A stretch of 64,000 nt of DNA from positions 1-64,000 of the IMG/VR virus record IMGVR_UViG_3300014326_000001. One strand, written 5' to 3'. Positions 6,720-22,856 of the stretch are shown piece after piece. The stretch is from a virus. Its lineage: Duplodnaviria; Caudoviricetes. The stretch's first letter is position 1, and each line of letters begins with the position of its first letter. The translations under genes and the position numbers were made by a program. The notes under the pieces were generated by a model, which was given only the letters and a program-made list of their open reading frames with translations, did no database searches and had not been told where the DNA came from.

Positions 6720-6781
6720 CAAGAACCTTGCTGCCCGATTCGGGCTAGGAATTGGCCGCCTTCGGCGAGCCGGAAAGTTGA
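6720..6781 (-). repeat. Dispersed structured element copy E5 (inverted)
   Basis: Minus strand TCAACTTTCCGGCTCGCCGAAGGCGGCCAATTCCTAGCCCGAATCGGGCAGCAAGGTT aligns with E1, E2, E6 and E8. Confidence 0.7.
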
Positions 6782-7058
6782 GTGACCCCCATGCGCTGAT
6801 GAACACTGTAAAGTCCTCAGAAGTCGCCTGTACGCTTGTTTTGTCTGCAAGTCGAAGCTATGCGGCATCTGCTCGGTAAAGAAGATTTACGGGCCATACA
6901 AAGGCAAGCGAGTGTGCTGCTACGTTGGGGACAAGCAATGCTCTAACGTTCCATTCCCCGCCAACACAAAAGCCGCCTGATTTCTCAAGCGGCCATGTGC
7001 AGGTTGTCATTTGAGTCACGTGGTTCAGGACGTGGGAATTCTACCCGAAAAAAACTAT

Positions 7059-7086
7059 TTGCACAAGCCCTGATTTGGTATATCAT
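7059..7086 (+). promoter_or_regulatory. Putative sigma70 promoter
   Basis: TTGCAC-16-TATCAT after an A-tract. Confidence 0.55.
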
Positions 7087-7466
7087 GTTCGCAAGGTTGT
7101 TATTTGAAACAGGATTTCCCTTCCATTGGAACCATCCACTCCCGAAGATAATCCATTAACCTTCGCGCTACGGCTAGCACCTGCTCGTATATGAAGCGCC
7201 TCGTCTAACTCCTAAACAAGAGCCAAGAGCCTAAAACTCAGACGACACGCCCTGTGCTGATTCGGTGGCGCGTAACAAATAGTCCAGCAGCGAATAATAA
7301 CTAGCTGCCCAACCAACGAATCAGATACCGAGCACGAAAGCGTGATGGCTGACGGGGCTGCCACGTAGCACGAGATAAGAGTCAATCTGTCAATTAAGAC
7401 GGCTAGCTCCTCGTGCGCTCGACTTCTAAAGCTGCCCCAAGCATGTTGAGTGATTACGGAGGTTGA

Positions 7467-7853
7467 GTGGCAAAGAAAAACGAATGTCCACGTTGTAACA
7501 ATGTAAGACCTAAAGAATGGTTTGGAGACCCTAAAGCACCTTACGCTATTTGCTTGAGTTGCAGGGTAGAAGTCAACGGTGAAAGAAAACAAGAGAAACA
7601 ACAAAAGCAAAGACTTAAATTTAGCCCGAACTGTGTCATTTGTGATGAACAAATTTTGGCCGGATTTGAGATTTGCGCAAATTGTCAGCGCGGGATTGAA
7701 TTGTTCAAAAACAGCACAAAGTTACTAGGTCGGGCGACTAGTTATGTTGGCCGGAATTTAAGAGGAAAGAAACGGAAGTTTAAGAAATTCAGGCCGCGAA
7801 ATAACAAGTTGCAGGAATTGATCAAAGCCCCAAAGGAAAGACCAACGGGATAA
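7467..7853 (+). CDS. Zinc-binding protein resembling endonuclease VII-type nucleases but lacking the DHxH catalytic segment
   Basis: CPRC...CLSC, then CVIC...CANCQRGIELFKNSTKLLGRATSYV; GGAGG RBS. Confidence 0.5.
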   Translation: MAKKNECPRCNNVRPKEWFGDPKAPYAICLSCRVEVNGERKQEKQQKQRLKFSPNCVICDEQILAGFEICANCQRGIELFKNSTKLLGRATSYVGRNLRGKKRKFKKFRPRNNKLQELIKAPKERPTG

Positions 7854-8021
7854 TTATTTGAGGTTTGACCACGCAATCAACAAGTGAAGCCGCGCAACGC
7901 AACCTGTCTTTTGTAACCCTGAACGCGGAAACCCTAGACGCTCTTTTCTTCATTAACTTTTCAGGTTTTGAGGTTCACTTAATGCAATTAACAGATAACT
8001 TCGCTTACACGAAATAGGGTA

Positions 8022-8050
8022 TTGACTTCGCGGTTACGAAAGATTATACT
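8022..8050 (+). promoter_or_regulatory. Sigma70-type promoter
   Basis: TTGACT-17-TATACT. Confidence 0.8.
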
Positions 8051-8100
8051 CGGCGCATCTTAGCTGGCGAGCTTAATACGCAACGGAGGGTTAATTCCAA

Positions 8101-8571
8101 ATGATTAGTGAGACTTATCGAGAAATCGAAATCACGCTGTTGGAAGAAGAGAACAAGTGGCGCTTTACCGCAAACGGTCGGGAAAGAACCGCTCCAAGTC
8201 TCCCAAAGGCAAAAGAGTACATCGACAACGCGCTGGACGAAATCAGGACTAACAAGGTAAAGCCGTGGCAGCCGTTCGAGGCGTACCATTGTCGGTATTC
8301 GGACACCACGTTTAATCTGGTAACCATTACCTCACAGGCCGAGGGTTCGCGATACTCTCCTAGAAGTGATCGTTACTTCTGGGCTACACAAAATGGCAAG
8401 CGTAGCAAGCTGGACGGTGACTACCTCTACGCTAAGACGCCGGAGAATGACAAGTTGATCGCTGACTATGCCGCGCTCAACAGGGAACTAGAAGCACTTG
8501 AAATCAGGGTGAGAGCCGCAAAGGGTAAGATCGAGAAAATTACAATTCCCGCAACCAAATCGGAGGACTAA
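8101..8571 (+). CDS. Hypothetical protein
   Basis: 156-aa ORF, GGAGG upstream. Confidence 0.75.
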   Translation: MISETYREIEITLLEEENKWRFTANGRERTAPSLPKAKEYIDNALDEIRTNKVKPWQPFEAYHCRYSDTTFNLVTITSQAEGSRYSPRSDRYFWATQNGKRSKLDGDYLYAKTPENDKLIADYAALNRELEALEIRVRAAKGKIEKITIPATKSED

Positions 8572-8612
8572 CCCTCCCGTGTTGGCGGACACGGCAAAAC
8601 CGCCTACAACCT

Positions 8613-8792
8613 ATGATCACAACATCGCAAATCGCAACCAAATTAGGCGTAACCCAAAGGCGCGTACAGCAACTTATCAAAGAGCTTGGCATCAAGACTG
8701 AAATAGTCGGCCAGACTCAGATTGTACCACCTAACGCGCTGGAAAAAATGCGAAAAAGAGAGACTAAATCAGGTCGCAAGAAAAGCAAATAA
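8613..8792 (+). CDS. 59-aa helix-turn-helix (excisionase/Xis-like) DNA-binding protein
   Basis: Manual translation MITTSQIATKLGVTQRRVQQLIKELGIKTEIVGQTQIV. Confidence 0.7.
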   Translation: MITTSQIATKLGVTQRRVQQLIKELGIKTEIVGQTQIVPPNALEKMRKRETKSGRKKSK

Positions 8793-8796
8793 CACT

Positions 8797-9465
8797 ATGA
8801 CACAGAATAAAAAACACGCATTCCAAGGATTCGGAGTCTGTAACCAAATGGACGAGGTTGGTATTTGTGGGCTACCACCCTCTGCCGACATCCACGATGT
8901 AGGAGAGCAGCCGCTATCGGGAAATGCTGGGATAGTTTGCCCAACGTGCAAGGCCAGCTTTCTTACCTATCCAGACTTCACAGCGCATATTGGTAGTCCA
9001 ACTTGCGCTAACGAAATCATGGTTAATGAGGAAGAGAGCACCGAGGCTTTCCCCGTTGTTGAGTCTCAAGCCATTTCAGAGTTGCAGGCTGCTCATTCGC
9101 TAACGCGGGACGTGTTTATGACCGCGCTGGAGGCGTTTGAAGACGCTACCTGCGATGCGGGCAACCCTGACTACCATATTAGCAAGAAACGCGCTTTAGC
9201 GGTCTATCTTGAGCAATTATTCTGCCATCCTGAGACCGACCACCTACAAAGAGAAGAGATAGCACGACTACGAGCAAGCGAGGATTTTCAATACAAAGAA
9301 ATCGCACAACTGCGGAAGGCGGCAAGCATCCTTATTACCAACGCGGAGTTGATTGACGATCCACGAAACGACGGCGCTACCGAGCGCGATTGCTACGCGG
9401 TCGCACTGAACGACTTGGAGTCTCTTCGCGCTGCCCTTAATCCAATACAGGAGAGTGGAAAATGA
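8797..9465 (+). CDS. Hypothetical accessory protein with Cys/His motifs
   Basis: ATG at 8797 (MTQNKKHAFQG) within ORF 8722..9465; CPTC...H motif. Confidence 0.7.
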   Translation: MTQNKKHAFQGFGVCNQMDEVGICGLPPSADIHDVGEQPLSGNAGIVCPTCKASFLTYPDFTAHIGSPTCANEIMVNEEESTEAFPVVESQAISELQAAHSLTRDVFMTALEAFEDATCDAGNPDYHISKKRALAVYLEQLFCHPETDHLQREEIARLRASEDFQYKEIAQLRKAASILITNAELIDDPRNDGATERDCYAVALNDLESLRAALNPIQESGK

Positions 9466-9794
9466 GCATTAAAACACTTCTTTGCGGTTGCGTGGTAAGC
9501 GGTAATGACGTTGCTCCATGCGGTGAACATGTGGAGAGGTTTCAGGCTGCGAAGACCCTCGCCGCAACAGTTGAAAAATGGTATGCAGGACTAGCTGTAG
9601 ACGTACATTCAGTGCGTGTGTCGCCGCACGATTTATTTCTAACAGGAGAACTTTGCGCCACTGAAAAAGAAGCGATAGCGGCCAAACGTAAACTCCATAT
9701 TACCAGAATGGAAGACGACCGAAGGATTGTCAACGCACTTGATGAACGATTCGACGCGATTGAGGATGAAGAGATGGCGAAGGGCAACGCATGA
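9462..9794 (+). CDS. Hypothetical protein
   Basis: ATGA-coupled, AGGAG RBS. Confidence 0.7.
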   Translation: MSIKTLLCGCVVSGNDVAPCGEHVERFQAAKTLAATVEKWYAGLAVDVHSVRVSPHDLFLTGELCATEKEAIAAKRKLHITRMEDDRRIVNALDERFDAIEDEEMAKGNA

Positions 9795-9985
9795 ACAAAG
9801 AACCATCAATAGGGACGGTCATTGCTTGCGTTGACAGCAACGGTAAAGACTGCACGGCAACTTACATGGGCGACGGCAAGTGGGAAATTACCCGTGACGG
9901 GAAAGTATACGGGCAAGCCGAAATGAGTTGGACTGAGTGGGTAGCCGCAAGCTGGCAGACTGAGATGGCGAAAGGAAGGGAGTAG
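9791..9985 (+). CDS. Hypothetical protein
   Basis: ATGA-coupled small ORF. Confidence 0.6.
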   Translation: MNKEPSIGTVIACVDSNGKDCTATYMGDGKWEITRDGKVYGQAEMSWTEWVAASWQTEMAKGRE

Positions 9986-9987
9986 AG

Positions 9988-10356
9988 ATGACGAAGAAGA
10001 ACATTGAATTATTGAAACGATTGCGAACTCGGTTCCTCAGGATGCGTCATCTTGAACACTTTGACATGACTGAGATAGCAACACGCGGCGAGTGTGGGGC
10101 AGTGATGTGCATTGCAGGCCACGCGCTTGATCTTGCTGGCTACAAGAGGCGTTGGAGCCCCGACTTTGGCGAATATCGTTTCCTTTCGCCAGACGGAAGC
10201 AAGGTATACGACCCGCTGAACACCGCGCAACGAGAACTTGGCCTAGATCGAGACGAAGCTCAAGGCGCACATGGTCTATTTTTTAATTGGAAACTCAAAA
10301 CGCCAAAGGACGCCGCCGAAGCAATCGACAAAATCATTCAAGGTGCTGCCCAATGA
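9988..10356 (+). CDS. Hypothetical protein
   Basis: 122 aa, GGGAG RBS. Confidence 0.7.
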   Translation: MTKKNIELLKRLRTRFLRMRHLEHFDMTEIATRGECGAVMCIAGHALDLAGYKRRWSPDFGEYRFLSPDGSKVYDPLNTAQRELGLDRDEAQGAHGLFFNWKLKTPKDAAEAIDKIIQGAAQ

Positions 10357-10786
10357 TCAACCTCGAAACCCAACTAACTCACGCCAAGTTTGACCCTTCA
10401 ATCAGCCGTACCCATATTCACATGAATACAGTAGATGAAGGCTATCATCGTTCAGTAAGAGCAGAGTTGTATTGCTTGATGCGGGGAGATTACCAAGCTG
10501 CCGGAATAATCAAATACCGAAGAACGCCCCCAAGGGAAGATGGGTGCATACCGTGTTGCCAGTGTGGTGAATTAACGAAATGGGACGTGACTTATCAAGA
10601 CCTTTGTTTTCGGTGTATTCGCGCTGACAATGAATAAGACTCCCAAACAGAAAAGTTTTTAGCCCCAAAGGAGACCGAAGTAATGAAACAGGAAATTCAA
10701 GGTGGTGAAGGCAAAGAACTTCGTTACGAAACTTAGTGAACTCTCCGAGCCGCGCAAGGCGTCGGACTAGAAACAGGGTAGCTTTT

Positions 10787-11239
10787 ATGACAGGCGCATC
10801 GAATCCAAACTTTAAGCACGGGCTTTGGAGCCATCCGCTATATCGAACGTGGCGAGGCATGATGGCTCGTTGCTACAACGTCGCTAGTCACGGCTACCCC
10901 TACTACGGAGCATGCGGCGTCACAGTTTGTAAGCGGTGGCACGACGTGAGGTTGTTCATCGCTGATATGCCCGCTCGGCCTTCCGCCAAGCACACACTTG
11001 ATCGTTACCCAGACAGGACGGGAAACTACGAACCAACCAACGTCCGTTGGGCTACATGGAAAGAGCAAAACCTTAACCGCAAACCTCGGAAACGCCACTT
11101 GCGCGGGACTCGCTGTAGGCGCGGCCACCAATACACGGAAGAAAATACGGGCATCAAATCAACGGGCGCGAGATATTGCCGGACGTGTTACCGCGCCAAT
11201 CAACGAACAAGATACAAACAGCAGACAATTCAAACTTGA
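10787..11239 (+). mobile_element. Free-standing HNH homing endonuclease
   Basis: HGL..HPLYRTWRGMMARC...TLDR.PD..GNYEPTNVRWAT plus C-terminal CRRGHQYTEENT...YCRTC. Confidence 0.85.
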
Positions 11240-11252
11240 AAGGTGATGAATC

Positions 11253-11906
11253 ATGGCACTAGGAAACGGAAAACCAAATTACAAACGACACGATGACGAC
11301 GAATGGATTGATGAGATTCGCCTTGTCACCGTGCCGCGTTACAAAACGTCAGGGATGAGCGGCGACGAGTGGCGGTTCTCTGCCAAGGTTCAACTCTTGC
11401 GAAAAGGGCACATTCTCTTTGAGCGTTCTTTTAGCAAGCTACACTACGCCATAGATTTCCTTCCCGCAATTCAACACGAGTTTGCTGATCAGGGACGAGC
11501 GGATCGAGACGTGGACGACCGCCCCGTTGACTTTGATCGCTATTGCTTTAATCCCGGATGTCGAGAAGACGGCGTGGTTGAATATCAGCTAATCGATCAG
11601 TTTTCCAGACCCTATGGCGACAAATTGCCAAAGAAGCCGTACCTCGGCGAGTACCGCCGACGATTCTGTGAAGCCCACGCAATGCGCGGCGACTGTGGCC
11701 TTGAGGATGCGGACTCCAACTACACGTTGATTTCCGCGCCGCCGGGATGGAAAGGAAACGCTGATTTAGGCGCAAAGGCGGCTGAGAGTCCGAGTGCGCA
11801 GATGAACGTTGCAATTAACAGCCTTGGCGATTTACCTGCCGCGATTGAGCGGGCACGAAAGGATCACGATGAAAACAAAGGAACGACTGACGCAGGCGCT
11901 TGCTGA
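11253..11906 (+). CDS. Hypothetical protein
   Basis: 217-aa ORF with Cys motifs. Confidence 0.7.
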   Translation: MALGNGKPNYKRHDDDEWIDEIRLVTVPRYKTSGMSGDEWRFSAKVQLLRKGHILFERSFSKLHYAIDFLPAIQHEFADQGRADRDVDDRPVDFDRYCFNPGCREDGVVEYQLIDQFSRPYGDKLPKKPYLGEYRRRFCEAHAMRGDCGLEDADSNYTLISAPPGWKGNADLGAKAAESPSAQMNVAINSLGDLPAAIERARKDHDENKGTTDAGAC

Positions 11907-12123
11907 ATCTAGCGCACCGGAATGGATGATTAAGAACGCCATCAACGGACAGTACGACGATTTCGAGTCACAACATCCGACGCCGATAAGCCTGCTCGTG
12001 GCCGATTGCCGCGCCAATGGATTGGACGCCATTGCGGCACGGGCTATTGACGGAGACTTTGATGCAAGCAAAGAAGAGTCTGACGCGTGGTTTGAAAGCG
12101 AAGGCAAGGACCTACTTGCATAG
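11869..12123 (+). CDS. Small hypothetical phage protein
   Basis: MKTKERLTQALAE..., AAGGA RBS, within ORF 11809..12123. Confidence 0.7.
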   Translation: MKTKERLTQALAESSAPEWMIKNAINGQYDDFESQHPTPISLLVADCRANGLDAIAARAIDGDFDASKEESDAWFESEGKDLLA

Positions 12124-12126
12124 CCT

Positions 12127-12198
12127 TCAACTTACCAACACGCGAGCCGCAGCGAGCGGTACAGCCGAGCAGGTTAAGTAGTGAGTTCTGTTCTGCAC
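12127..12198 (+). repeat. Dispersed structured element copy E3 (divergent)
   Basis: TAG.CCTTCAACTTACCAACACGCGAGCC...GCGGTACAGCC parallels E1 TAG.CGTCAACGTACCAACACCGCGAAGCGGGTACAACC. Confidence 0.6.
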
Positions 12199-12567
12199 GT
12201 CCCCCAACTGATTTGTTTACCAAGGAGAACGAGTGTGAGTGAGCCTCAATTTGACTTTGAGTTTGCCATTACCCCTCGGGTCGCAAAAAGTGGCAGCGCA
12301 TGTGGATTGGAAGCTGTTTTTGGATCGCTAACCTACGAGGCGTTGGAGTTCCACGGAAGCGATACTTCGCGCCGCTTTCGCCGACGTTGGACTGACCGGC
12401 AATTTCACGCTGCCATTCAGGACGTTTGGAATCACGGCTATCGCATCGTATCAGTGTTGAAAAACCGCGCACCGGAGCCGGGGACAACGCCCGAGTTCCG
12501 CATAGAGAATTCCAACCTGTACGAAGGCCACGGGTCAGATATGAAAATCAAGGGGCAACTCCCATGA
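12181..12567 (+). CDS. Hypothetical protein (start uncertain)
   Basis: 128-aa ORF coupled by ATGA to the next gene. Confidence 0.55.
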   Translation: MSSVLHVPQLICLPRRTSVSEPQFDFEFAITPRVAKSGSACGLEAVFGSLTYEALEFHGSDTSRRFRRRWTDRQFHAAIQDVWNHGYRIVSVLKNRAPEPGTTPEFRIENSNLYEGHGSDMKIKGQLP

Positions 12568-13079
12568 CTGATCTATCCGTTAGTGAAGTAGAAGCGATGC
12601 TGGCGAAACTGACCGCACAGGGCGTATGGCATCCCTATGATCGAGGCATTGGGTGGGAAGCTCACCGCGAGGCTACCTGTGTCCCTGAGTGCCTAGAACT
12701 CAACATGCAGGACAAGGAAACGTTCAAGCAGGCTGATGCCGAGTTCATCGCCGCCGCCCCTCAGATAGCTAAACAGTACCTTGAGGTAGTCAAAGAGAAC
12801 AGCGATCTGCGGCTGGGTGGGCCATGCACCTACAAAACAGTGATCGAGAGCATGGAGATGCTGGAAGCCGCCGGAATGGGTACAGAGGGCAAACCGAACA
12901 CGCTTTGGGCTATGACACAGGAGGCTATTGAACAACTCGCCGCCCTCCGCAAAGAAAGAGATCGATTAGTGTCTACGCTGGAAGGTCGCGCTGAAGAAGA
13001 AATGAAAATGCTTGCTGAGGTCGCCGCTGAAAACGACGAATTGCGCGCAGAGCTAGAACGGCTGAAAGGGGAGAAATGA
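12564..13079 (+). CDS. Ead/Ea22-like accessory protein
   Basis: ADAEFIAAAPQIAKQYLE motif and C-terminal coiled coil. Confidence 0.6.
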   Translation: MTDLSVSEVEAMLAKLTAQGVWHPYDRGIGWEAHREATCVPECLELNMQDKETFKQADAEFIAAAPQIAKQYLEVVKENSDLRLGGPCTYKTVIESMEMLEAAGMGTEGKPNTLWAMTQEAIEQLAALRKERDRLVSTLEGRAEEEMKMLAEVAAENDELRAELERLKGEK

Positions 13080-13765
13080 AAACTAAGAATCCAGAACAGA
13101 AGGGTAAGGCTAAAACTGCACCGAGCCTCTCAACAGTTGTGGAGAGCGGCGAAGCGCACGCAGTAGCGGGCTTGGCGGTGTGCCCATTCTGCGGAGTCAA
13201 AGCAGAGGAATCAGCGCGACCGCATTGGATTCACATCATGCATTTACATGACTGCTTTATCGCGCTTCTCGCCCAGCGGGACATGTACATCCCGCGTGAC
13301 GAATGGTTGGCAGCGTGGAACACCCGAGTAGTAAGTGGTCTTCCAGCGTGGCAACCGATTGGGGCGGGACTACCAAAGGCGGGAGTCCCTGTACTGGCGT
13401 TCTTCCGCTATGCCTCAACGGGCAAAGGTCGCGTGGTTCGCGCCATGTACGCGCCAAGCCTGACTCTCACAGAAGAAGATTGGGGAGATTTTCAAAGCGG
13501 CGCGGATTACGACGAAGCAACTGACGCGACCTATTGGCCGGAAGGTTGGTACGAAAGGAATGAATACGAAGAAACGAACTGGAGGCTATCGGAAGACGTG
13601 ACGCACTGGATGCCGCTCCCTGCGCACCCGATCACACAAGCTGAGGGTGGGTCTCCATCTCAGGACGTACCCGAATCGCTCGCTCCTGAAACTGAGTCTG
13701 TTTCTTCTGCTGAATCTATGCGTACTGCAGAAGTAAGTCAGGGAGAGGAAACAGAAAATCTTTAG
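13076..13765 (+). CDS. Mosaic accessory protein (Lar-like CPFCG motif plus DUF551-like domain)
   Basis: CPFCG, WNTR, WQPI and THWMPLP motifs. Confidence 0.7.
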   Translation: MKTKNPEQKGKAKTAPSLSTVVESGEAHAVAGLAVCPFCGVKAEESARPHWIHIMHLHDCFIALLAQRDMYIPRDEWLAAWNTRVVSGLPAWQPIGAGLPKAGVPVLAFFRYASTGKGRVVRAMYAPSLTLTEEDWGDFQSGADYDEATDATYWPEGWYERNEYEETNWRLSEDVTHWMPLPAHPITQAEGGSPSQDVPESLAPETESVSSAESMRTAEVSQGEETENL

Positions 13766-13830: not shown

Positions 13831-14208
13831 GTGGTTGTGAAGCTAAATCGCAAGAGCGTGTTCGCAAGGTTCTACCTGTTGGCTGGCGATGAGTGGAATT
13901 TGCCAGAGGACTTTTGCTCCTTCTTTTGGGGGTTAGTTGAACGCGCCCTAAAAGTAATCATCTTTGTTGCGGTATGCCTATTCATTATCTGCTTCTTTGT
14001 TTACGGGGTTATTCACGTCGTCATGGCGGGATGGAGACACCCGACGATCTCCGCGACCGCCCTAGCGTCTGCATTCGTCATCGCCGGAGGGTTCTGGCTG
14101 GCTTACCGCCGAGGCGTAGCGAGCGCCGCGAGCGACTTACTGAAAATTGTAAACACGAAGATCGACTCAGTCAGAAATCGCTACTGCCTCCGAATAGAGT
14201 GGCACTAG
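13831..14208 (+). CDS. Membrane protein with two hydrophobic segments
   Basis: GGAGG RBS; two TM-like stretches. Confidence 0.7.
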   Translation: MVVKLNRKSVFARFYLLAGDEWNLPEDFCSFFWGLVERALKVIIFVAVCLFIICFFVYGVIHVVMAGWRHPTISATALASAFVIAGGFWLAYRRGVASAASDLLKIVNTKIDSVRNRYCLRIEWH

Positions 14209-14210
14209 CG

Positions 14211-14274
14211 TCAACGTACCAACACCGCGAAGCGGGTACAACCTAGCCCGATTCAGTAATGAGGGTTGTGCAGC
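14211..14274 (+). repeat. Dispersed structured element copy E1
   Basis: TCAACGTACCAACACCGCGAAGCGGGTACAACCTAGCCCGATTCAGTAATGAGGGTTGTGCAGC, starting 2 bp after a stop codon. Confidence 0.8.
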
Positions 14275-14323
14275 ATTGATCGACGTTTCAGTTCTTGGAT
14301 TTATTCTTGAGAGGGAGAAAGAA

Positions 14324-14746
14324 ATGGATAACAAAACTACAGACTTAAAAGGTGATGAGGAACAAAACCCAGCTTCTCCATCTGCTGAATCACGAGCCAC
14401 TGGTGCGTTGAGTGCTGCCCTTGACCGCCTTATGGCCGTGTTCAATGAAGCGTCTGACGAGCGATACGAGAACCTAAAAGAATGGGAGAATCTCGGTCGG
14501 CGTTGGCAGAGCGAAGGAGACGGGTACGGCTACAACTTTCATCAAGGAATGGCCGCTGGCGCAAACTGGTGCGATATTTATTACCGCCGCGTGGGGCGAG
14601 AAATAGAAGCGATCCGCAAGGAGTTCACTCAAGCTACAGCGTCACCCGCTTCGGGTGCGCCTCTCTCCAGAGAGGGAGGGCAAGGGCAATACTGTGAACA
14701 CCATACTTACCGTTCACTGTGTCCAGCGTGCAGCGGGTTGAGCTAA
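14324..14746 (+). CDS. Hypothetical accessory protein
   Basis: MDNKTT start with GGGAG RBS, within ORF 14276..14746. Confidence 0.7.
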   Translation: MDNKTTDLKGDEEQNPASPSAESRATGALSAALDRLMAVFNEASDERYENLKEWENLGRRWQSEGDGYGYNFHQGMAAGANWCDIYYRRVGREIEAIRKEFTQATASPASGAPLSREGGQGQYCEHHTYRSLCPACSGLS

Positions 14747-14847
14747 GAAACGTGATGACTATTAAAGGCGAATCGTTTGGACGCGGTGACGTAATCTTCG
14801 TTGTGGTTATTTTGATTCTGATCGCGCTCGCCCAAAGATGCTAAAGC

Positions 14848-14910
14848 TTCCAACGCACCGGAAGCGGGAAGCGGAGACCTAGCCCGATCAAATTGAGAGT
14901 ATTGTGCAGC
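14848..14910 (+). repeat. Dispersed structured element copy E2
   Basis: TTCCAACGCACCGGAAGCGGGAAGCGGAGACCTAGCCCGATCAAATTGAGAGTATTGTGCAGC, between TAA 14842-14844 and ATG 14911. Confidence 0.8.
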
Positions 14911-15055
14911 ATGAATAAGAAACGCCTGATCCCCTTTGTCATCTTCTTACTATTGTTCTACTTCTATTACGTAATGGAACAACCAGTAGATATTTGTCCA
15001 GTAGAGTTAAAATCAGTTGAAGTTAAAGACGATCTGAGCAGGTATTGAAATGCAG

Positions 15056-15118
15056 CAAAAAGCTCCTAGCTGCCCCCACCGTTTGAGAAAGCCCCGCTTC
15101 GCGGAGGCAGAAAGTTGA
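15056..15118 (-). repeat. Dispersed structured element copy E6 (inverted)
   Basis: Minus strand TCAACTTTCTGCCTCCGCGAAGCGGGG...GGGCAGCTAGG matches E5 TCAACTTTCCGGCTCGCCGAAGGCGG...GGGCAGCAAGG. Confidence 0.65.
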
Positions 15119-15124
15119 GAGGTT

Positions 15125-15855: not shown

Positions 15856-16079
15856 ACAACGCGCTATTTAGAATCTGTCTCTTCCTGAAGTGGGCGACTG
15901 CGATGGTCAGCGGCAGTTTGGTGGCGCTCATTGCGGTTCACTTTGGCCGTAACGCTTGCTTCTTGGCAGCTGGCGCGACTCTGAGCGGACTTCTTGGCGG
16001 GGCGTGCTGTGTCTTAAAAGCGGCAATTCACGTCTACGGCGACCCTGAATGGATAAAGAGTCTACGCGAGGAATGAATC

Positions 16080-16343
16080 GTGGGTGAATCAAAATCCATA
16101 ATCCTTGAAGCAGAAGTTCATTCCTTCCCTGCCGATCCGGTCGATGAGCCAATGTGGGGGTATCCTGATGACGAACAGCGCGAACCTGCTCCTTGTTGTG
16201 TAGAGTGTGATTATTCTGATCTACAAGAATGGGAGTGGGAAATGAAGCAAAGAACTCTCGTTGCGGATCAACTAGAACTCTCCGAGCCGCCGCTTCGCGG
16301 TCGGAGTAACTTGAGTGCCCCCGCGCCTTGGGAGCGTTCATGA
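16080..16343 (+). CDS. Hypothetical protein
   Basis: 87 aa, acidic, CCVEC motif. Confidence 0.55.
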   Translation: MGESKSIILEAEVHSFPADPVDEPMWGYPDDEQREPAPCCVECDYSDLQEWEWEMKQRTLVADQLELSEPPLRGRSNLSAPAPWERS

Positions 16344-16675
16344 GCGATTTAATAAATATCGAGAAAGAACTTGTGCGCCTCGGCGGTGCGCTTGATCTTC
16401 TGACCACGGATTTTGAGGGTCTGTGCCGCCGCGCCGCCGATGCTCGCTCCGACTACGATATTGCATGGGCAAAAGCGTTACTCAAATCGAACGGTAGCGC
16501 AAAAGACATAAGAGAATCCGAAGCCGTGCAAGTTGTCGAAACCGAGATGCGCGAAGCTCGCATAGCCGAAGCAATTAGGGATGCTGCTAAAGAAAGAATT
16601 CGCGCTCTTGAGTCGCTGCTCACTGTTCATCAATCCCGCCTTAAATGGCTTGACGAAGGAAAACGATTTGCATGA
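16340..16675 (+). CDS. Helical UvsY-like recombination mediator (putative)
   Basis: All-helical 111 aa directly before the nuclease and SSB-like genes. Confidence 0.45.
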   Translation: MSDLINIEKELVRLGGALDLLTTDFEGLCRRAADARSDYDIAWAKALLKSNGSAKDIRESEAVQVVETEMREARIAEAIRDAAKERIRALESLLTVHQSRLKWLDEGKRFA

Positions 16676-17454
16676 GCCTCCCTCGCGTTGAAGAAATCTT
16701 ATTTGAACATTTGATCGCGGAACGCGAGACGCGAGAACGTGCGCCTTCTCTGTTGCCGGACACGCTTCACGCCAACGCTTCATCTGCCGGGGGCTGCGCT
16801 CGCGCTGTCGGACTGCGCATGGCAAAGCTGGAAGGCGAACCCGTCAGCGCCGACGCTCTGTTCAACTTCTACATCGGGGACGCAATTCACGACAAGATTC
16901 AAGCGGCCATGCTTGCTAAGATTCCCAAGGCAGAGAAAGAAGTTAACGGAGTTATCGAGGACTTCATCACCTGTCGCGCCGATCTAAAATATCCTGCTGA
17001 AGATTCAAAGAGCGTATGCTGCGAAATCAAGTCCACTTCGGACTTCGGATTCAAACTTGCCACTGGCGCAAAGTTGAAATCTAACGGTCAATGGAACAAG
17101 AAAGACCAAAAGGCAGAAGGGCCAAAACGAGAACATATCCTTCAAGTTGGTATCTCTGCCAAGTCTATTGACGCTGACTATCTAGCGATTGTTTACGCTC
17201 GGAAAACAGCGGCCAAAGATGAACCAATTATACATGAGTGGCGATTCAAAGTGGAGGATTTTGAGGGCGCAATTCAGGATGAAATTGCGCGGCTAAAACA
17301 CATTGTCGAACTAGTGCGCGGGGGGCGCATACCGGATCGAGAATATCAAGGGGGAGTAATTGACAACCCAAAAACAGTTCGCTTCCCGTGTGGTTATTGT
17401 CAGTACTTGAAACCATGTCTGACGTTAGGCGCAGGGGAAGTGGAAATCAAATAA
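16672..17454 (+). CDS. PD-(D/E)XK Cas4/RecB-like exonuclease
   Basis: SSAGGCAR, GDAIH, RADL...EIKS, QVG and terminal CGYCQYLKPC Fe-S-type cysteines. Confidence 0.85.
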   Translation: MSLPRVEEILFEHLIAERETRERAPSLLPDTLHANASSAGGCARAVGLRMAKLEGEPVSADALFNFYIGDAIHDKIQAAMLAKIPKAEKEVNGVIEDFITCRADLKYPAEDSKSVCCEIKSTSDFGFKLATGAKLKSNGQWNKKDQKAEGPKREHILQVGISAKSIDADYLAIVYARKTAAKDEPIIHEWRFKVEDFEGAIQDEIARLKHIVELVRGGRIPDREYQGGVIDNPKTVRFPCGYCQYLKPCLTLGAGEVEIK

Positions 17455-17483
17455 CAATCTAACCCAAGTAAAGGAACAAACCA

Positions 17484-18311
17484 ATGAAAGGTTTCCAAGA
17501 AAAAACAACGGGTGACGGAACTTTCTTCGTCATCAAACACCACACAATTTGCCGCGAATCGAAAACCCCGCAAGAGGGCTTTCATTCAATCGAGACAGTT
17601 AACCCGCGCACTGGCGATAAGGTAACAAAATACATTCAGGAATTCAGTTCGCTTGAAGCGATGATCACGAAGATCGAATGGTATGACACCGATCAAAAGT
17701 ACGAAACGCGCTATCGAGGGTTCAAGATTCACCTTGACGCAAGCGGGAAACATGGCGTTCTCGATCTTCCAATCAACGCTCGCGTCACAAGTCGGTTTAT
17801 GAAGTTGGCCGAGAATATCGACTTCACAAAGCCTGTGGAGTTTCGAGCATGGCACGATAACAAGTCAGACTCGACAGCTTTACTAGTCGCGCAGAACGAA
17901 GTCAGCGTGCCGCAGAAATACACGCGAGAGAATCCCGGCGACATGCCGCCTCCGGTACAGAGAGCGTCTACAGGCAAGTGGAGCTACGACGATCAAATGG
18001 AATTCCTGCACAAGCGCATGATGGAAGTTGTTATCCCGAAAGTTGCAGCGACCGCGCCAGCCGCAACGCAGGAACCTACGCAGGGAAACGCGCTGACCGA
18101 ACAATCAGCTACAGCCGACGCCAAGTTAATCGGAAAAGTCAAAGAGGCTCTAACTGACCTTTCTGACCATGACGACTATAAGGAGCGAACACGGAGCCAG
18201 TTGCTAGATGAGTTCTTCGGGACAACGAAGTTTGCGGAAGTCGAAGCGATGCCGCCTGATGTCTTGAAAGCGGTACTCAAAAAGATTGACGAGATAATCG
18301 TTCCCTTCTGA
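17484..18311 (+). CDS. Putative ssDNA-binding / recombination protein
   Basis: Position after the exonuclease; C-terminus DEIIVPF resembles the SSB-type PF tail. Confidence 0.5.
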   Translation: MKGFQEKTTGDGTFFVIKHHTICRESKTPQEGFHSIETVNPRTGDKVTKYIQEFSSLEAMITKIEWYDTDQKYETRYRGFKIHLDASGKHGVLDLPINARVTSRFMKLAENIDFTKPVEFRAWHDNKSDSTALLVAQNEVSVPQKYTRENPGDMPPPVQRASTGKWSYDDQMEFLHKRMMEVVIPKVAATAPAATQEPTQGNALTEQSATADAKLIGKVKEALTDLSDHDDYKERTRSQLLDEFFGTTKFAEVEAMPPDVLKAVLKKIDEIIVPF

Positions 18312-18520
18312 AAATAAGTATTGTGTCGAGGGGCGAGTTGTTCTAAAATTCGCCCGTTGACAATTTGAGATTTGACGCGCTAATGGCATGGTGCGTAGAA
18401 TCAACCGCAAGTGACGGCTTTTCTTGAGCCGCGTTTCGCTACCAAAGTCTTTTGACCAACTCTTGCGGGAAGGTTCTAAGATATGCCAAATGCGGCGCGG
18501 TTCAAGAAAGGCCGTTTTCT

Positions 18521-19381
18521 ATGTCCAAGGGCTTGCCCCCACCCAATCACACCCAGACTCCGAATATCTTTTTCGATGAGTCGCTTGCGAAAATTAAATC
18601 TTTCGCAGAGTTGAAGGTTATTCTTGCCGTCATTCGCCAAACCTTTGGGTGGCACAAAGATTCCGACAAACTGAGCCACTCACAACTAGCCAAAACCACA
18701 GGTTTAACCCGGCGAGGAACGATCAACGGGATTGAGAGAGCCTTGGAAGAAGGCTACCTAGAGCGCGAACCAAGCGGCCAGAGCTTCACGTATAGGCTCG
18801 CGCTAGTGAACATCGAAGCACCAGTGAACGAAGTATCTAGTGAACCAACTTCACCTGAGCTAGTGAACGTCGTTCACCAGCAACTAGTGAACCAAGTAGG
18901 CACACAAAAGAAAGGGAAAAAGAAAGTAAAGAAAGAAGAGGGGGCGCAAGCGCAGCCGGGGGGAACCGTCCTCTCTGGAATCGCTTTGCTCCGCGACGTG
19001 GCTCAGGCCTTCCCTCCCAAGGAATCATGGCCGCGCTATCTTGAAATTCTTGGCGAGAATGTTGACGAGGCGAAGTTGAGAAAATGTCGCGCCGAGTGGG
19101 TTGACCGAGGCTACAACAAAGTTTCGTGGAAGTGGTTTACCGAGTGGTACGTTGAGGGGATGCCGGAACGTAACGGGCGTACCGCAACGGCCACGGCAGC
19201 GCGAACCTACGAATGGCAAGGTCGTTACTACGCTTACGGGGAGACTATCTCGGACGACGGCACACGGTTCACGGTAATGGGTTCGGATGGAACGCCTACA
19301 AAACGCTGGCACACGCTGGAAGCATACGCAGAGGATCGAGGGCTAACTATGGAACAGGCAAGACACGGGATGAATGCGTGA
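18521..19381 (+). CDS. Lambda O-like replication initiator
   Basis: HTQTPNIFFD...ELKVILAVIRQTFGWHKDSDKLSHSQLAKTTGL winged-HTH (Phage_rep_O-type). Confidence 0.85.
   Translation: MSKGLPPPNHTQTPNIFFDESLAKIKSFAELKVILAVIRQTFGWHKDSDKLSHSQLAKTTGLTRRGTINGIERALEEGYLEREPSGQSFTYRLALVNIEAPVNEVSSEPTSPELVNVVHQQLVNQVGTQKKGKKKVKKEEGAQAQPGGTVLSGIALLRDVAQAFPPKESWPRYLEILGENVDEAKLRKCRAEWVDRGYNKVSWKWFTEWYVEGMPERNGRTATATAARTYEWQGRYYAYGETISDDGTRFTVMGSDGTPTKRWHTLEAYAEDRGLTMEQARHGMNA
18803..18940. repeat. Replication origin: iterons plus A-rich tract inside the initiator gene
   Basis: C(T/C)AGTGAAC at 18803, 18821, 18837, 18860 and 18884; inverted copy at 18872; A-rich purine tract 18904-18940. Confidence 0.8.
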
Positions 19382-21147
19382 TGGAACTAAATCCATTACA
19401 GACACAACTGAAGCAAGAACGCGCCCCGCTTGTGGAAGCCCTTGGCGTTAGGCTCATAAACGGAAAGTCCTGCAAATGCCCGTTTCACGATGACAAGCAC
19501 GCCTCGGGCAGCGTATTTCAAGACCAAGACGGTGGATGGAAGTTTCATTGTCATACATGCGATTGGTCAGCCGACGTGTTTGACGTGAGAGCGAGAGTCG
19601 AGAATAGGCCACTTGGGGATATTCTTGGGGAATACAAACCAGAGAAGCCAAAGCACTACGAAAGCCTTGAAGCGATTATTAGAACTTATCCAGATGTTGA
19701 AGAAACCTACAAATATACGAATCCGCGAACAGCACGAGTCGAGTTGGCAGTTATTCGCTATCGGATCAACGGAAGAAAAGCCTTTGCCCAATGCTCCCCC
19801 AACGGATCAGGATGGCTTAAAGCCCGACCTGAAGGAAAACTCCCGCTCTACAATCGAAAACGAGTCCAAGAATCCGAAACGGTGATTGTGGTGGAAGGGG
19901 AAAAAGCGGTTCACGCCTTGCATAAGGCCGATATGGTAGCCACTACAAGCCCAATGGGCGCGGGAAAGGCAAGGGAATCTGATTGGTCAATCCTCTCAGG
20001 TAAGAAAGTTTATTTGTGGCCGGATAACGATCCCGTCGATCCGAAAACGCTGAAACAAACGGGCATCGATCACATGAAAGATGTTCAGGCAATTCTTGAA
20101 ACGATGAACTGCGAATTGTTCTGGATAGAGCCTTCAAGTCTCGATTTACCACCCAAGGGTGACGCAGTTGATTTCATGGCAAATAATGAAGGCTCGCCAG
20201 AAGATAAGAAAATGGCTGTGTTGTTGGTCTTAGATGAGGCGCAACCACTAGGAGCGGCACAGGAACTAGGAAAACGTTTGCAGTCAATTATTGCAGGGGA
20301 ATGGGTGAGCTTGGAGTGGCCGTGGCGAATGCTGACTACGCACACACAATCGCTTTTGCCTGATACCGTTACGGCGGTTTGTGGTGAGCCGGGAGCAGCA
20401 AAGTCTTTCTTTTTACTGGAATCGTTTTGGAAGTGGCATTTAGCGGGGCATAAGGTAGCGATATTTGAACTTGAGGATGACCGAACATTTCACCTTCACC
20501 GAGTCCTTGCGCAGTTGGAATCTAATTCGTCTTTGACCGACGCCGAGTGGGTAAGGACTCACGCAGAACAGGCCACGGCATCATGGAACAATCAAAAAGA
20601 CATTCTTGATTCGCTAGGAAAAGTGATGTGGGACGCGCCAAACTCTCAAATTACGCTTCCCGAACTGGCAGATTGGTTTGAGGCTCGCTGTCAAGAGGGA
20701 TTTGAGTTGTGCGTTGTCGATCCGGTTACAGCTACGGTCGCATCTGACAAGCCTTGGATAGACGATCAGAAGTTCATATTCAGAGTGAAGACCACAGCCA
20801 AGAAGTATCACTCAAGGTTGATTTACGCGATTCACCCAAGGGTGGCAAACGGGAAAGTGGGAGCAAGTCTTTCGAGGATGGCGGGGGGCGCAGCCTACGC
20901 GAGATTCTCCCACTCCGTTTTGTGGATTACGAAGTTTGATAAAGAACGCTCAGAGACTATTTGGAGTCCTGATGGTGGCACGCGCCCAGCCTCATTTGAA
21001 CGAACGGTAAAAATCAGCAAAGCACGAAACGGAAAAGGCGCGGGCGCTGAATTGGCCTACCACCTAAACACAGGAACGTTATGTTTTTCAGAATTTGGGG
21101 AAGTGTCAGAACATGAAAGCAATAGAAACTCGCTACGCGAGTCATAG
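19381..21147 (+). CDS. Primase-helicase (Zn finger + TOPRIM + RecA/DnaB-like ATPase)
   Basis: CKCPFHDD...CHTC; VVEGEK and WPDND; GEPGAAKS Walker A, VVDPV Walker B. Confidence 0.88.
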   Translation: MELNPLQTQLKQERAPLVEALGVRLINGKSCKCPFHDDKHASGSVFQDQDGGWKFHCHTCDWSADVFDVRARVENRPLGDILGEYKPEKPKHYESLEAIIRTYPDVEETYKYTNPRTARVELAVIRYRINGRKAFAQCSPNGSGWLKARPEGKLPLYNRKRVQESETVIVVEGEKAVHALHKADMVATTSPMGAGKARESDWSILSGKKVYLWPDNDPVDPKTLKQTGIDHMKDVQAILETMNCELFWIEPSSLDLPPKGDAVDFMANNEGSPEDKKMAVLLVLDEAQPLGAAQELGKRLQSIIAGEWVSLEWPWRMLTTHTQSLLPDTVTAVCGEPGAAKSFFLLESFWKWHLAGHKVAIFELEDDRTFHLHRVLAQLESNSSLTDAEWVRTHAEQATASWNNQKDILDSLGKVMWDAPNSQITLPELADWFEARCQEGFELCVVDPVTATVASDKPWIDDQKFIFRVKTTAKKYHSRLIYAIHPRVANGKVGASLSRMAGGAAYARFSHSVLWITKFDKERSETIWSPDGGTRPASFERTVKISKARNGKGAGAELAYHLNTGTLCFSEFGEVSEHESNRNSLRES

Positions 21148-21649
21148 ATTTCGTTCACGATTGGAAGCCCGTTACGCAGTTTTCTTTGACGCGCTTAACG
21201 AACCTTGGGAGTACGAGAAAGAGGGATACGTTTTGGAGGACGGAACGCTTTATCTTCCCGATTTCTGGATGCCGAATCTACAGTGTCATTTGGAAATCAA
21301 AGGCCAACTGCCGACACAAGAAGAATACGACAAGACTCAAGGGTTGGCGCACGGAACAAATAAGGCCGCAGCAATTATCCACGGATTGCCGGGAGAACAA
21401 TGGGGCATTCTGTATTGCGTAGACGACACTGACTCGTCGGGAGGTTGGGGAACTTGGCAATTCCGTTTCGGAGTAAACGCAAGCAGCGAATTAGCGTTCT
21501 TGGTAGATCAGTTTGACCCGGAACGGAGGATTCTATATTCCGTCCCTTATGAAAAAATATTGCGCACGAGTTATCGCTGGATGGAAACCAACGCGCTGCA
21601 ACATGCGGCCACGCAAGCCAAAGAAGAACGATTTGAGAGGCGACGATGA
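21113..21649 (+). CDS. PD-(D/E)XK nuclease
   Basis: FRSRLEARYAVFFD...WEYE...YLPDF...LEIKG. Confidence 0.8.
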   Translation: MKAIETRYASHRFRSRLEARYAVFFDALNEPWEYEKEGYVLEDGTLYLPDFWMPNLQCHLEIKGQLPTQEEYDKTQGLAHGTNKAAAIIHGLPGEQWGILYCVDDTDSSGGWGTWQFRFGVNASSELAFLVDQFDPERRILYSVPYEKILRTSYRWMETNALQHAATQAKEERFERRR

Positions 21650-21952
21650 TTGTCTGGTGTTGGGACTGTGAAGAGTTTTGGGAATGCCCGGAGAACGGCC
21701 ATGACGGAACAGACCTAATTTGTTACGAGTGCGTAGAGCTACTTAATGCAGGCTACATAATTTGGCGTGACCGCCAACAGGGAATTGAATGGGAGGGACT
21801 GATTGCATGAAACACCAAAGATACAGTCGCGCCAAAGAAGTCTGCCCCCGGTGCAATAATACAAATTCGGAAATCATAAAAGTTGGGCAGTATGAATATG
21901 CTCGCAAGTGTGATCACTCAACACGGCCAACACTTCCACTGGAGAAAAGTAA

Positions 21953-22195
21953 ATGATAATCAACACCGACCCCGACGCATATGTGCCGATTAGTAATGTA
22001 AGAATCTGCCCGTTCCACCTTAAGAACGCTGGCGTGCCTTATGCGGGGTGCACTTGTTCTGCCAGTTACGGACAGCGAAGGGCTACAGAATCCGAGTATC
22101 GAGAGCGACGACGTAAACGCTTGGTAGAAAAACGTGCTTGGCTCTTGGAAGCACTAGCAGAGATTGAAGCTGAACTTCAGGATGTAGGAAAATGA
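21953..22195 (+). CDS. Hypothetical protein
   Basis: 80 aa, CPFH and CTCS motifs. Confidence 0.6.
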   Translation: MIINTDPDAYVPISNVRICPFHLKNAGVPYAGCTCSASYGQRRATESEYRERRRKRLVEKRAWLLEALAEIEAELQDVGK

Positions 22196-22695
22196 ATCTC
22201 GACGAACACGGTACTATAACAAACGATCAAGGGCGCACGTTTCGCGTGGTTAAGGTAGGCGACGAACTGCGCGTGAACGGGAGGCCGGATTGGCACGGTG
22301 GCGGCATGACGTGGGCGCAGACCACGGTTAAACGTCACCCCAAATACGTTTACGGAACAAAGATGGGAAAGCTGTTGCACGAGATCGAGAAAGTCAGATT
22401 GGTATGGTGGCAGCTTGGCGGTCACGGTAGCTATTTCTTTCGCGTTTCATCACCCCGCGTGTACTTTGAGACAAAATGTGGCTATTGCTTCTTTGGCTCC
22501 GACCCAACGAACACATTTAGGAGCAGTCGCAAGTCAAAGGCTACCGTTTGTGAGCTACCAAAACCGGACGCCGTTCTCTGCGGTCGCTGCCGTGGTGAAG
22601 GCGCGGTCTTTGGAAAACTCGGAAAAGTTGGACGCGGTGGCGTCACCTACAAAGAAGCCCGTGAGCGTATTGGCTGTACGGTGCAAGTCTCGTAA
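22192..22695 (+). CDS. Hypothetical protein with Cys motifs
   Basis: ATGA-coupled, 167 aa. Confidence 0.65.
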   Translation: MNLDEHGTITNDQGRTFRVVKVGDELRVNGRPDWHGGGMTWAQTTVKRHPKYVYGTKMGKLLHEIEKVRLVWWQLGGHGSYFFRVSSPRVYFETKCGYCFFGSDPTNTFRSSRKSKATVCELPKPDAVLCGRCRGEGAVFGKLGKVGRGGVTYKEARERIGCTVQVS

Positions 22696-22697
22696 CC

Positions 22698-22760
22698 ACT
22701 CAACGTACGTGAGCGGGACGCGGAGAGCGATCAAGATACGCCCCGCGAGGGTTGTGCAGC
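22698..22760 (+). repeat. Dispersed structured element copy E7
   Basis: ACTCAACGTAC...GCGGGACGCGGAGAG...GAGGGTTGTGCAGC(ATG); both ends match E1. Confidence 0.75.
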
Positions 22761-22784
22761 ATGATCCTGAATTCTTTGAAATGA

Positions 22785-22856
22785 AGACAACCCCTCTCAT
22801 TACAGATCGGGCTAGGAGTCTCCGACCCGCCGAAAACCGGACGGTGAAGGTTGGAT
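22785..22856 (-). repeat. Dispersed structured element copy E8 (inverted, facing E7)
   Basis: Minus strand ATCCAACCTTCACCGTCCGGTTTTCGGCGGGTCGGAGACTCCTAGCCCGATCTGTAATGAGAGGGGTTGTCT. Confidence 0.8.

Follow-up and report, generated by a model that had tools for sequence, protein, structure and literature searches.

What are the short structured repeats that stand between the small accessory genes of an uncultured soil-type phage, and what keeps them there? The question arises from the first 64,000 bases (1-64000; the window) of IMG/VR virus record IMGVR_UViG_3300014326_000001, a 73,087-bp phage genome with direct terminal repeats that we call G0. An initial annotation, made from the letters of this window, had listed seven copies of one family of structured elements between positions 6,720 and 22,856, and had proposed that they act as a recombination or mobility signal that delimits gene cassettes. 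We find that the repeat family is real and larger than first listed, with at least a dozen copies in G0 and a unit length of 70-80 bp, and that it recurs in two relatives found through protein-guided scans, the complete phages G1 (62 kb, about nine copies) and G2 (71.6 kb, about eight). The presence of both orientations, the Watson-Crick covariation of the stems, a T bulge on one arm only and nearest copies that lie in different genomes all fit a DNA-level reading. Our best explanation is a lineage-specific family that is kept and propagated as DNA and serves in addition as a recombination linker, in the manner of the repetitive extragenic palindromic (REP) sequences and the Rickettsia palindromic elements (RPEs) of bacteria; we regard it as evenly poised between right and wrong.

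The census of copies was made with a profile hidden Markov model that was built from the seven originally listed copies and then iterated with nhmmer over the whole of G0. All seven were found again at the places and on the strands first given for them, with E-values from 2e-14 to 2.6e-6, the range covered by 11 G0 copies in total. Copies beyond the first list are E9, E10, one copy inside an open reading frame (ORF) and, outside the window, E11, E12 and a hairpin-less variant. The family is thus not confined to the variable early arm, as had been claimed, since E9 lies at 31869-31938 and E11, E12 and the variant at 71.7, 72.4 and 67.0 kb. The 10-mer CCTAGCCCGA, reported earlier from E1, E2, E5 and E8, is indeed exact in these four and has a fifth exact match at 31902, against ~0.1 expected by chance in the window, where the same pattern read backwards, our control, had no match. 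The G0 copies and fragments are given below; forward-type copies run from tail to head along the gene direction and sense-type copies from head to tail, and R1 is a covariance model (CM) described further on.

6712..6785, minus strand: E5, full sense-type copy (nhmmer E 4.4e-11; CM R1 45.8 bits) in the gap 3' of a 29-aa membrane ORF; hairpin GGC-T-CGCC-GAA-GGCG-GCC
12124..12198, plus strand: E3, forward-type (nhmmer E 6.2e-10), beginning 3 nt past the TAG of ORF 11809-12123; core of type II, TACC-AACAC-hairpin-GGTA; a G1 copy matches it at 76% identity over 51 nt
14208..14278, plus strand: E1, forward-type (nhmmer E 2e-14), beginning 2 nt past the TAG of ORF 13831-14208; type II core GTACC-AACAC-CGC-GAA-GCG-GGTAC, then CCTAGCCCGA
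14354..14419, minus strand: weak element-like stretch, tentative (nhmmer E 0.77 only; motif), with head motif D-E-E-Q-N-P and tail GTTGAGTG
14625..14700, plus strand: in-ORF copy, forward-type (CM R1 40.7 bits, E 1e-7); hairpin GCG-T-CACCCG-CTT-CGGGTG-CGC
14846..14913, plus strand: E2, forward-type (nhmmer E 4.4e-12), coming after the TAA at 14842-14844; the ATG of the 45-aa ORF 14911-15048 forms its final three bases
15049..15122, minus strand: E6, sense-type (nhmmer E 3.7e-10; CM R1 47.3 bits); head overlapping the TGA of ORF 14911-15048, tail GTTGAGAGG 3 nt 5' of the ATG of ORF 15125-15388
16241..16318, minus strand: E10, sense-type (nhmmer E 4.2e-09); type III hairpin CTCCGA-CCGC-GAA-GCGG-CGGC-TCGGAG; 78% identical over 68 nt to G1 54835-54901, including a compensatory C:G to T:A change
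21914..21950, plus strand: tail-only fragment (CACTCAAC..CCAACAC), tentative, at the 3' end of the Zn-ribbon ORF 21789-21956
22696..22763, plus strand: E7, forward-type (nhmmer E 2.6e-06), its tail box (CCACTCAAC) immediately 3' of the TAA of ORF 22192-22695; its terminal ATG opens only a 7-codon ORF
22780..22859, minus strand: E8, sense-type (nhmmer E 3.1e-08)
25286..25331, minus strand: remnant of the hairpin-less variant (tail plus GTCTTTAGAAACCCTGAAC; blastn), after the clamp gene
31869..31938, plus strand: E9 (nhmmer E 9.2e-10; CM R1 38.9 bits), in a minus-strand gene block and sense-type there; tail 10 nt from the ATG of ORF 31389-31859(-)
67026-67095 of the genome, beyond the window: hairpin-less variant, best match G1 48975-49045
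~71694-71752 of the genome, plus strand, beyond the window: E11
72363-72440 of the genome, plus strand, beyond the window: E12

When each copy is oriented from its CAAC box to CAT, the parts follow one another in a constant order, namely a tail, a GC hairpin, often (C)CTAG(CCCGA) or CTCTC, some 15-20 variable nucleotides, and a head. The tail, in which we confirm the 5' YCAAC box of the initial annotation, reads (C)CACTCAAC followed by NT(A/T)C and is separated from the hairpin by a spacer of ~5 nt. The box often present after the hairpin is CCTAGCCCGA, with CTAG in its middle, and the head is GAG(G)GTTCT(T/G)TGC(T/A)(T/G)CAT(TTCC) with the core GTTCTTTGCTTCATTTCC. A 3' GTTGT, earlier taken to be usual, holds only for the subfamily E1, E7 and E8 (ATTGT in E2); the majority of copies carry GTTCTTTGC..CAT at this end. 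The GC hairpin itself stood up to closer inspection, and so did the GAA loop in E1, E5 and E6, but not as a fixed feature, as GGA, GCA, GTA, TTT and CTT occur among other loops. The hairpin, mostly 3 bp, a bulged T, 3-6 bp and a 3-nt loop, comes in three builds. Type I (E5, E6, E9, E12, the in-ORF copy and at least five G1 copies) has a 3-bp outer stem, a T bulge on the 5' arm, an inner stem of 3-6 bp and a 3-nt loop; type II (E1, E3 and five G2 copies) is TACC-AACAC-stem-loop-stem-GGTA, and all five ACCAACAC words in G2 precede such a hairpin; type III is found in E10 and one G1 copy. The hairpin-less variant keeps tail and head around a middle that reads GTCTTT(A/C)AGAACCCTGAAC. The unit is asymmetric, with the tail box, the T bulge, always on the 5' arm, and the head in fixed order.

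A sign of a maintained structure comes from the stems. The covariance model R1, trained on six type I copies, recovers its training copies, E10 and five further G1 copies. On the model alignment A5 (12 copies), which was fitted to the model, pairing cells amount to 97.4%, six of the seven stem pairs show changes on both sides, and double-change cells number 20 against 6.3 in shuffles, with 0 of 500 shuffles reaching 20; a control in which partners were slid by 1-3 columns gave pairing in only 31-54% of cells. Stems read straight from the sequences agree (GGC.CGCC, GCC.CCGC, GTG.CCG, GCG.CGAGCG, GCG.CACCCG, GGC.CACGCG). Covariation had been named beforehand as a check on the structure, and the model alignment indicates that the hairpin is under selection. 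The claim of one family of structured elements at accessory-gene junctions is borne out. The second stem drawn in the initial annotation, CGGG...CCCG, fared less well: its box is invariant, hence no covariation can be read from it, and its placement is inconsistent among copies. Folds of the whole element gave no consistent structure apart from one local hairpin of 7-9 bp, 5-10 nt from the CAAC box, and a scan for the tail plus any hairpin was unspecific (67 matches against ~40 in shuffles). Only one of 78 cells is a G:U pair, and the two strands fold about equally well. Since G:U is almost absent, both strands can fold, and its scarcity together with the similar strand stability is what one would look for in an element that has to fold, or remain a palindrome, whichever way it is oriented. 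Few G:T wobbles are available in these copies for a check of strand choice.

Covarying stems would also be expected of a cis-acting RNA element, the main alternative named in the initial annotation, an intercistronic hairpin that controls mRNA stability, processing or translational coupling of the small early genes and is conserved for its usefulness, not for movement. All copies fall within transcribed gene arrays, precisely where a stop meets the next start, and the ends supply SD (Shine-Dalgarno)-like and ATG or stop signals, as such an element might. A Watson-Crick palindrome, moreover, folds either way, and the REP hairpins of E. coli fold in mRNA in either orientation. Yet the asymmetric tail, bulged T and head would make a different RNA in each orientation, with ~40% of copies in the minority one; G:U pairs, common in RNA helices, are nearly lacking here; no U-tract follows the hairpin, which is thus not an intrinsic terminator; and the 64-kb window gave no Rfam 15 match at the gathering score (and no tRNAs). 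Identical particular stems that stand beside unrelated genes in different genomes (see below) likewise suggest shared descent, not convergence. We consider the RNA element an unlikely account of the family, if a serious contender. The DNA-level and RNA-level readings need not be exclusive, by analogy with REPs, which do both.

The setting of the copies is that of junctions throughout. G0 (GC content ~50%) has its genes on the plus strand from ~3.9 to 28 kb and on the minus strand elsewhere. Its recognisable genes encode a primase-helicase, a Phage_rep_O-like initiator, a Cas4-like exonuclease, a sliding clamp, a large terminase and tail-fibre-like proteins, and most other ORFs lack family matches. 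Copies occupy the entire stop-to-start gap between small accessory genes, in either orientation. Forward-type copies (E1, E2, E3, E7) start 0-5 nt past the upstream stop; that the plus-strand copies follow a stop codon is correct, as first noted, and E2 and E7 end on an ATG, as had been seen. In sense-type copies (E5, E6, E8, E9, E10, E12), the head lies at or on the upstream stop and the tail, read GTTGAG(T/A)GG, 3-22 nt 5' of the next start. Both orientations, likewise part of the first description, are confirmed, with roughly eight or nine sense-type and five forward-type copies in G0 and a similar mixture in G1 and G2. Stop, SD-like and ATG signals are found at both ends of the unit and on both strands, so that tightly packed genes stay translatable whichever way a copy lies. 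Head-to-head inverted pairs, which might delimit a mobile cassette, occur (E2-[45-aa ORF]-E6 and E7-16 nt-E8) but do not form the general pattern. Opposite E1 stands the N-terminus of gene 14324, which is weakly element-like. A promoter scan of 4000-23999 found no sigma-70 hexamer pair inside copies, and its totals match the shuffle expectation.

A repeated, orientation-independent sequence at gene boundaries, with short invariant boxes (CAAC, CCTAGCCCGA), might also be a double-stranded DNA operator for a phage or host regulator that has spread through the accessory regions. The palindrome, however, varies in sequence, length and loop and yet keeps its pairing, the opposite of what a sequence-specific operator would do. 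The units are also long for operators (70-80 bp) and are tolerated inside ORFs, and no matching repeat-binding regulator was identified. We hold operators to be quite improbable.

The 3' end of the unit has a property that the initial annotation did not contain: it is the reverse complement of a gene-start and N-terminal coding motif, and some copies lie inside the ends of ORFs. Read in reverse complement, the head resembles a gene start (GGAAATGAAGCAAAGAAC) and consists of an SD-like run plus ATG, GGAAATGAAGCAAAGAACYC; in the adjacent frame its codons spell N-E-(A/N/E)-(K/Q)-N-(P)-S. This codon motif opens at least seven real ORFs across the three phages. In addition, unrelated proteins of all three share an N-terminal motif N/D-E-x-K/Q-N-(P/F/S)-S with S/A-G-L 10-20 residues further on, which could be a common tag, a translation-start region or the product of absorbed repeat copies. 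The sites are as follows.

G0: ORFs 6181-6405 and 14324-14746, codon motif at start; shared N-terminal motif at 6193 and 14354
G1: ORF 38443-38925 and a start near 35353, codon motif at start; shared N-terminal motif at 38907 and 35354
G2: starts near 69961, 51001 and 65483, codon motif at start; shared N-terminal motif at 65482, 69960 and 51002

Several copies are translated. Homologs of gene 14324-14746 share only residues 33-104, and their alignment stops at IRKE, just 5' of the in-ORF copy; the lineage-specific C-terminal extension of this gene is the in-frame translation of the strong copy 14625-14700. Its N-terminal 32 residues (stretch ~11-32) are, tentatively, coded by a weak sense-type look-alike. 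ORF 16080-16343 reads in frame through E10 at its 3' end and stops on the ATG of the next gene, a 74-aa ORF reads into E12, and in G1 a real ORF has copy 35287-35356 as its N-terminus, with another copy at the 3' end of 38443-38925. The in-ORF copies are confined to ORF termini, as would be expected if a shifted start or stop brings a junction copy into the ORF. Translational bypass of the T4 gene 60 kind was dropped as an explanation for them, the copies being open in frame.

The element thus resembles, in sequence, the first 25-30 codons of an otherwise unrelated set of proteins, and it could consist of decayed duplicates of a paralogous early-gene 5' end (leader plus those codons), left behind by gene gain and loss. 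The true N-termini of the at least seven ORFs speak for this, as do the correspondence of the element box TCGGGCTAG to TCGGGCTTG (S-G-L) in two G2 genes and the resemblance of the hairpin-less variant, through its remnant 25286-25331, to the N-terminal coding region of G1 gene 38443-38925. At least five G0 copies (E1, E2, E3, E7 and 14625-14700) are nevertheless inverted to all their neighbours, and five copies share an exact 10-mer with a stop codon, which points to descent from a unit that was already non-coding. Nor does coding constraint explain the covariation of the hairpin; head variability shows no third-codon-position excess; and the restriction of in-ORF cases to termini is what absorbed junction elements would show. 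Descent from duplicated gene starts is, in our judgement, improbable.

As for sharing between phages, a scan of relatives had been called for, and it was here that G1 and G2 proved to carry the family. Their primases are 62-64% identical in amino acids to that of G0, with which they have almost nothing else in common. Comparison of the genomes by blastn returns the primase and a small number of genes. The remaining matches are mainly short islands, most of them elements or head-like gene starts, so that beyond those genes the phages share nucleotide-level islands chiefly in the form of the elements. Five reciprocal-best pairs were found (E6/G1_37482, E10/G1_54833, E12/G1_57549, E1/G2_61219 and the 67-kb variant/G1_49041), and E1 is identical to G2 61216-61247 at 31 of 32 nt. 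Translated searches of 1.5 kb on each side of the five pairs found no homology between their flanks. As stems vary freely within the family, identical particular stems in different genomes argue for descent of the element independent of its neighbours. The replication block common to G1 and G2 ends at 48618 and 59824, respectively, with a sense-type copy within one small gene of the end in both. At the junction in G2 orthologous to that of the G0 Zn-ribbon gene, an orthology that rests on one tblastn match (E 3e-5), there is tentatively a full copy in the opposite orientation to the tail-only fragment of G0.

The family was not found on any other contig examined, including those with homologs of gene 14324. 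Pattern scans of IMG/VR with the type II core and the head returned only G1, G2 and unrelated AT-rich phages and no further carriers, and searches of INPHARED gave no match to the repeat and no phage similar to G0 at the nucleotide level. In the primase, the nearest relatives found reach ~65% identity at the nucleotide level; in a neighbouring gene, the nearest reaches 67% at the amino-acid level. The latter case is a 12.5-kb NCBI metagenome contig with a 67%-identical ortholog of a G2 gene that lies 3' of one copy; upstream of it, only the head and CTAG part is kept. This contig also carries an integrase and an HNH_3 gene, and it has a co-oriented intergenic repeat of its own (..CTGCAA.C.CCAACC..GGCGTCT.AA..GATTTTGAAATG), which follows several stop codons, with copies at 5478-5560, 6750-6825 and 8845-8895.

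Among known systems, the REP and REPIN elements of Enterobacteria and Pseudomonas (PMC3116915, PMC3337134) are likewise short imperfect palindromes whose stem contains a bulge or mismatch and is flanked by a conserved box. They too are dispersed in many copies and both orientations, mostly extragenic just after genes and sometimes as inverted pairs, have covarying stems and encode no enzyme of their own. The corresponding traits here are the CACTCAAC box with its bulged hairpin, at least 12 copies, covariation, and the inverted doublets E2/E6 and E7/E8. REPs, however, are chromosomal repeats of bacteria that number tens to hundreds per genome and are accompanied by a single gene for a REP-associated tyrosine transposase (RAYT; PMC3116915, PMC3337134). 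The present carrier is a 73-kb phage without a Y1 transposase, no cognate RAYT was found within G0, G1 or G2, the 70-80 bp unit includes a gene-start-like head, and some copies are translated. RPEs, as far as they are summarised in PMC10969869, are transposase-less palindromic repeats that occur both between genes and in frame, adding segments to unrelated proteins; the finding of one repeat both intergenic and translated in unrelated proteins is of the same kind, the Rickettsia sequence families themselves not being applicable. The same summary describes RPEs as ~100-150 bp long, encoding a conserved peptide and inserted inside metabolic genes; our in-frame copies differ from those so described in lying only at ORF termini and in having no peptide conserved past ~7 residues.

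Phage counterparts exist in the promoter early stem-loops (PeSLs) of T4-type phages (PMC2839356, PMC4122927), repeats of ~70-100 bp in the gaps between accessory ORFans, with a GC stem-loop and an end on SD and ATG, which were proposed as linkers for modular shuffling. PeSLs are defined by a strong sigma-70 early promoter co-oriented with the gene, and their recombination products have been shown (PMC2839356, PMC4122927). The elements of G0 contain no promoter match, ~40% of them are inverted, and they are known as sequence only; promoter and orientation rule out membership of the PeSLs (PMC2839356). The viral miniature inverted-repeat transposable elements (vMITEs) that hosts and viruses share (PMC11602168) are also small non-autonomous repeats in viral genomes with an enzyme presumed to act in trans, but the terminal inverted repeats and target-site duplications that are the hallmarks of a classic MITE are absent here, which excludes this class, and no cellular counterpart has turned up so far. 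The 73-kb genome with terminal repeats also brought N4-like hairpin promoters to mind, which were rejected because there is no giant virion RNA polymerase. A promoter for a single-subunit RNA polymerase, considered because the TAACCACTCAAC box resembles the T3 promoter, was set aside as well, since no such polymerase was identified, with one 886-aa ORF lacking any Pfam or PHROG match, and orientations are mixed.

A further reading is that of integron-like attC sites on which an integron integrase of the host would act. In its favour, the units have a ..CAAC at the 5' end, some copies carry GTT close to the 3' end, a strand folds with an extrahelical T, and the position is at cassette-like gene boundaries. 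An attC site is spanned by one long imperfect palindrome in which the inverse core sites R'' (RYYYAAC) and R' (GTTRRRY) pair with each other, and integron cassettes with their attC sites are all co-oriented and lie next to intI, attI and Pc. None of this is seen here. Pairing between the ends of the unit reaches no more than 4 bp, and this in few copies, without R'/R'' pairing or an end-to-end palindrome, and only the local 7-9 bp hairpin forms; the 3' GTT belongs to the conserved AAC codon motif and is followed by CTT, not RRRY, in most copies; orientation is not uniform; and intI, attI and tyrosine recombinases are absent from G0 and G1. Fold and orientation effectively refute an integron-like site, and the earlier statement that these are not canonical attC sites stands.

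We propose, then, that the family consists of small non-autonomous palindromic repeats in the gene junctions of an uncultured phage group and would be a phage counterpart of REP/REPIN and RPE. Copies might spread with the help of an enzyme that acts in trans and recognises the bulged hairpin of a single strand, or through short-homology recombination by the phage's own exonuclease-based system. They may further act as linker sequences where accessory genes are exchanged, a role suggested by their being common to otherwise unrelated phages, which the family may thereby help to swap genes. Some copies beside a reading frame have, as described, become N- or C-terminal protein extensions. The hairpin probably also forms in mRNA and may affect stability or translational coupling, as REP hairpins do; this would be a side effect and not the reason for the conserved asymmetric parts. 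A more specific version, in which a mobile junction element is recognised by an enzyme as a single-stranded DNA hairpin with an extrahelical T and CACTCAAC, settles either way round between packed genes or at their ends, moves between unrelated soil phages and serves both as a crossover point and as a source of protein termini, appears rather doubtful to us.

Several observations weigh against spread at the DNA level, whichever its route. The head variant GGTTGTGCAGCAT is common to E1, E2 and E7, and head variants in general correlate with orientation, which suggests selection through gene expression and not free insertion. The part retained upstream of the 67%-identical ortholog looks, from its sequence, like vertical inheritance under constraint. 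Both points would suit an RNA element. The alignment behind the covariation counts favours the structure to which it was fitted. No target-site duplication or terminal inverted repeat was seen on inspecting the flanks of all G0 copies, where tail and head are not inverted repeats of one another and no direct repeat stands beside the units. Among relatives, the nearest at ~65% nucleotide identity in the primase, no insertion, excision or inversion event is documented. A Y1 (RAYT/IS200) transposase (PF01797) was matched in control genomes but not in G0, G1 or G2, and no element-specific recombinase was found in the three phages. Lastly, the repeat model had no match in two genomes assembled from metagenomes (MAGs) of Phycisphaerae, the group that supplies the best cellular matches to the primase-helicase (full-length match at 40% identity, located on a contig of 15.8 kb), which is a weak hint, from sequence similarity, at Phycisphaerae as the host. 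The proposal of a recombination or mobility signal has therefore come through in part: several features fit a DNA-level reading, and a dedicated recombinase was not found in the three phages.

The related statement that the window encodes no recombinase holds for Y1 transposases and tyrosine recombinases (Phage_integrase family), the latter being absent from G0 and G1 and represented in G2 only by an ordinary integrase, but the window does encode a Cas4-like exonuclease and two HNH_3 / His-Me finger endonuclease-like ORFs. These two, at 42088-42618 (+) and 45050-45778 (+), run against the direction of the structural genes around them, a placement typical of free-standing homing endonuclease genes, and both resemble the G1 HNH ORF 54921-55520, which adjoins a repeat copy. 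Save for this one G1 copy, no tie was seen between endonuclease or exonuclease ORFs and the elements.

To our knowledge, sequences at which modules are exchanged are rarely visible in phage mosaics, and the PeSLs of T4-type phages are the main documented case. The present family is a different kind of junction element, hairpin-based, found in either orientation, promoter-less and sometimes translated, and it is almost the sole nucleotide-level similarity of three phages that are otherwise unrelated. If it is mobile or recombinogenic, it would offer a concrete, testable mechanism by which soil phages shuffle accessory genes, a way for selfish repeats to lengthen phage proteins at their ends and, should a host carry the same repeat, possibly a marker linking phages to that host; if it is only an RNA hairpin, it would be an ordinary intercistronic element of modest interest.

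Two minor observations concern the neighbourhood. A near-consensus sigma-70 match (TTGACA-18 nt-TATGCT) at 22878-22907 (+) lies directly downstream of E7/E8 and just 5' of ORF 22917-23117, and the inverted pair may mark the end of one transcription unit. ORFs 10736-11239 (+) and 33852-34520 (+), both without Pfam matches, each match G2 at 49.4-49.8 kb and are thus paralogs; the second runs counter to the genes beside it, a hint that it is another mobile gene.

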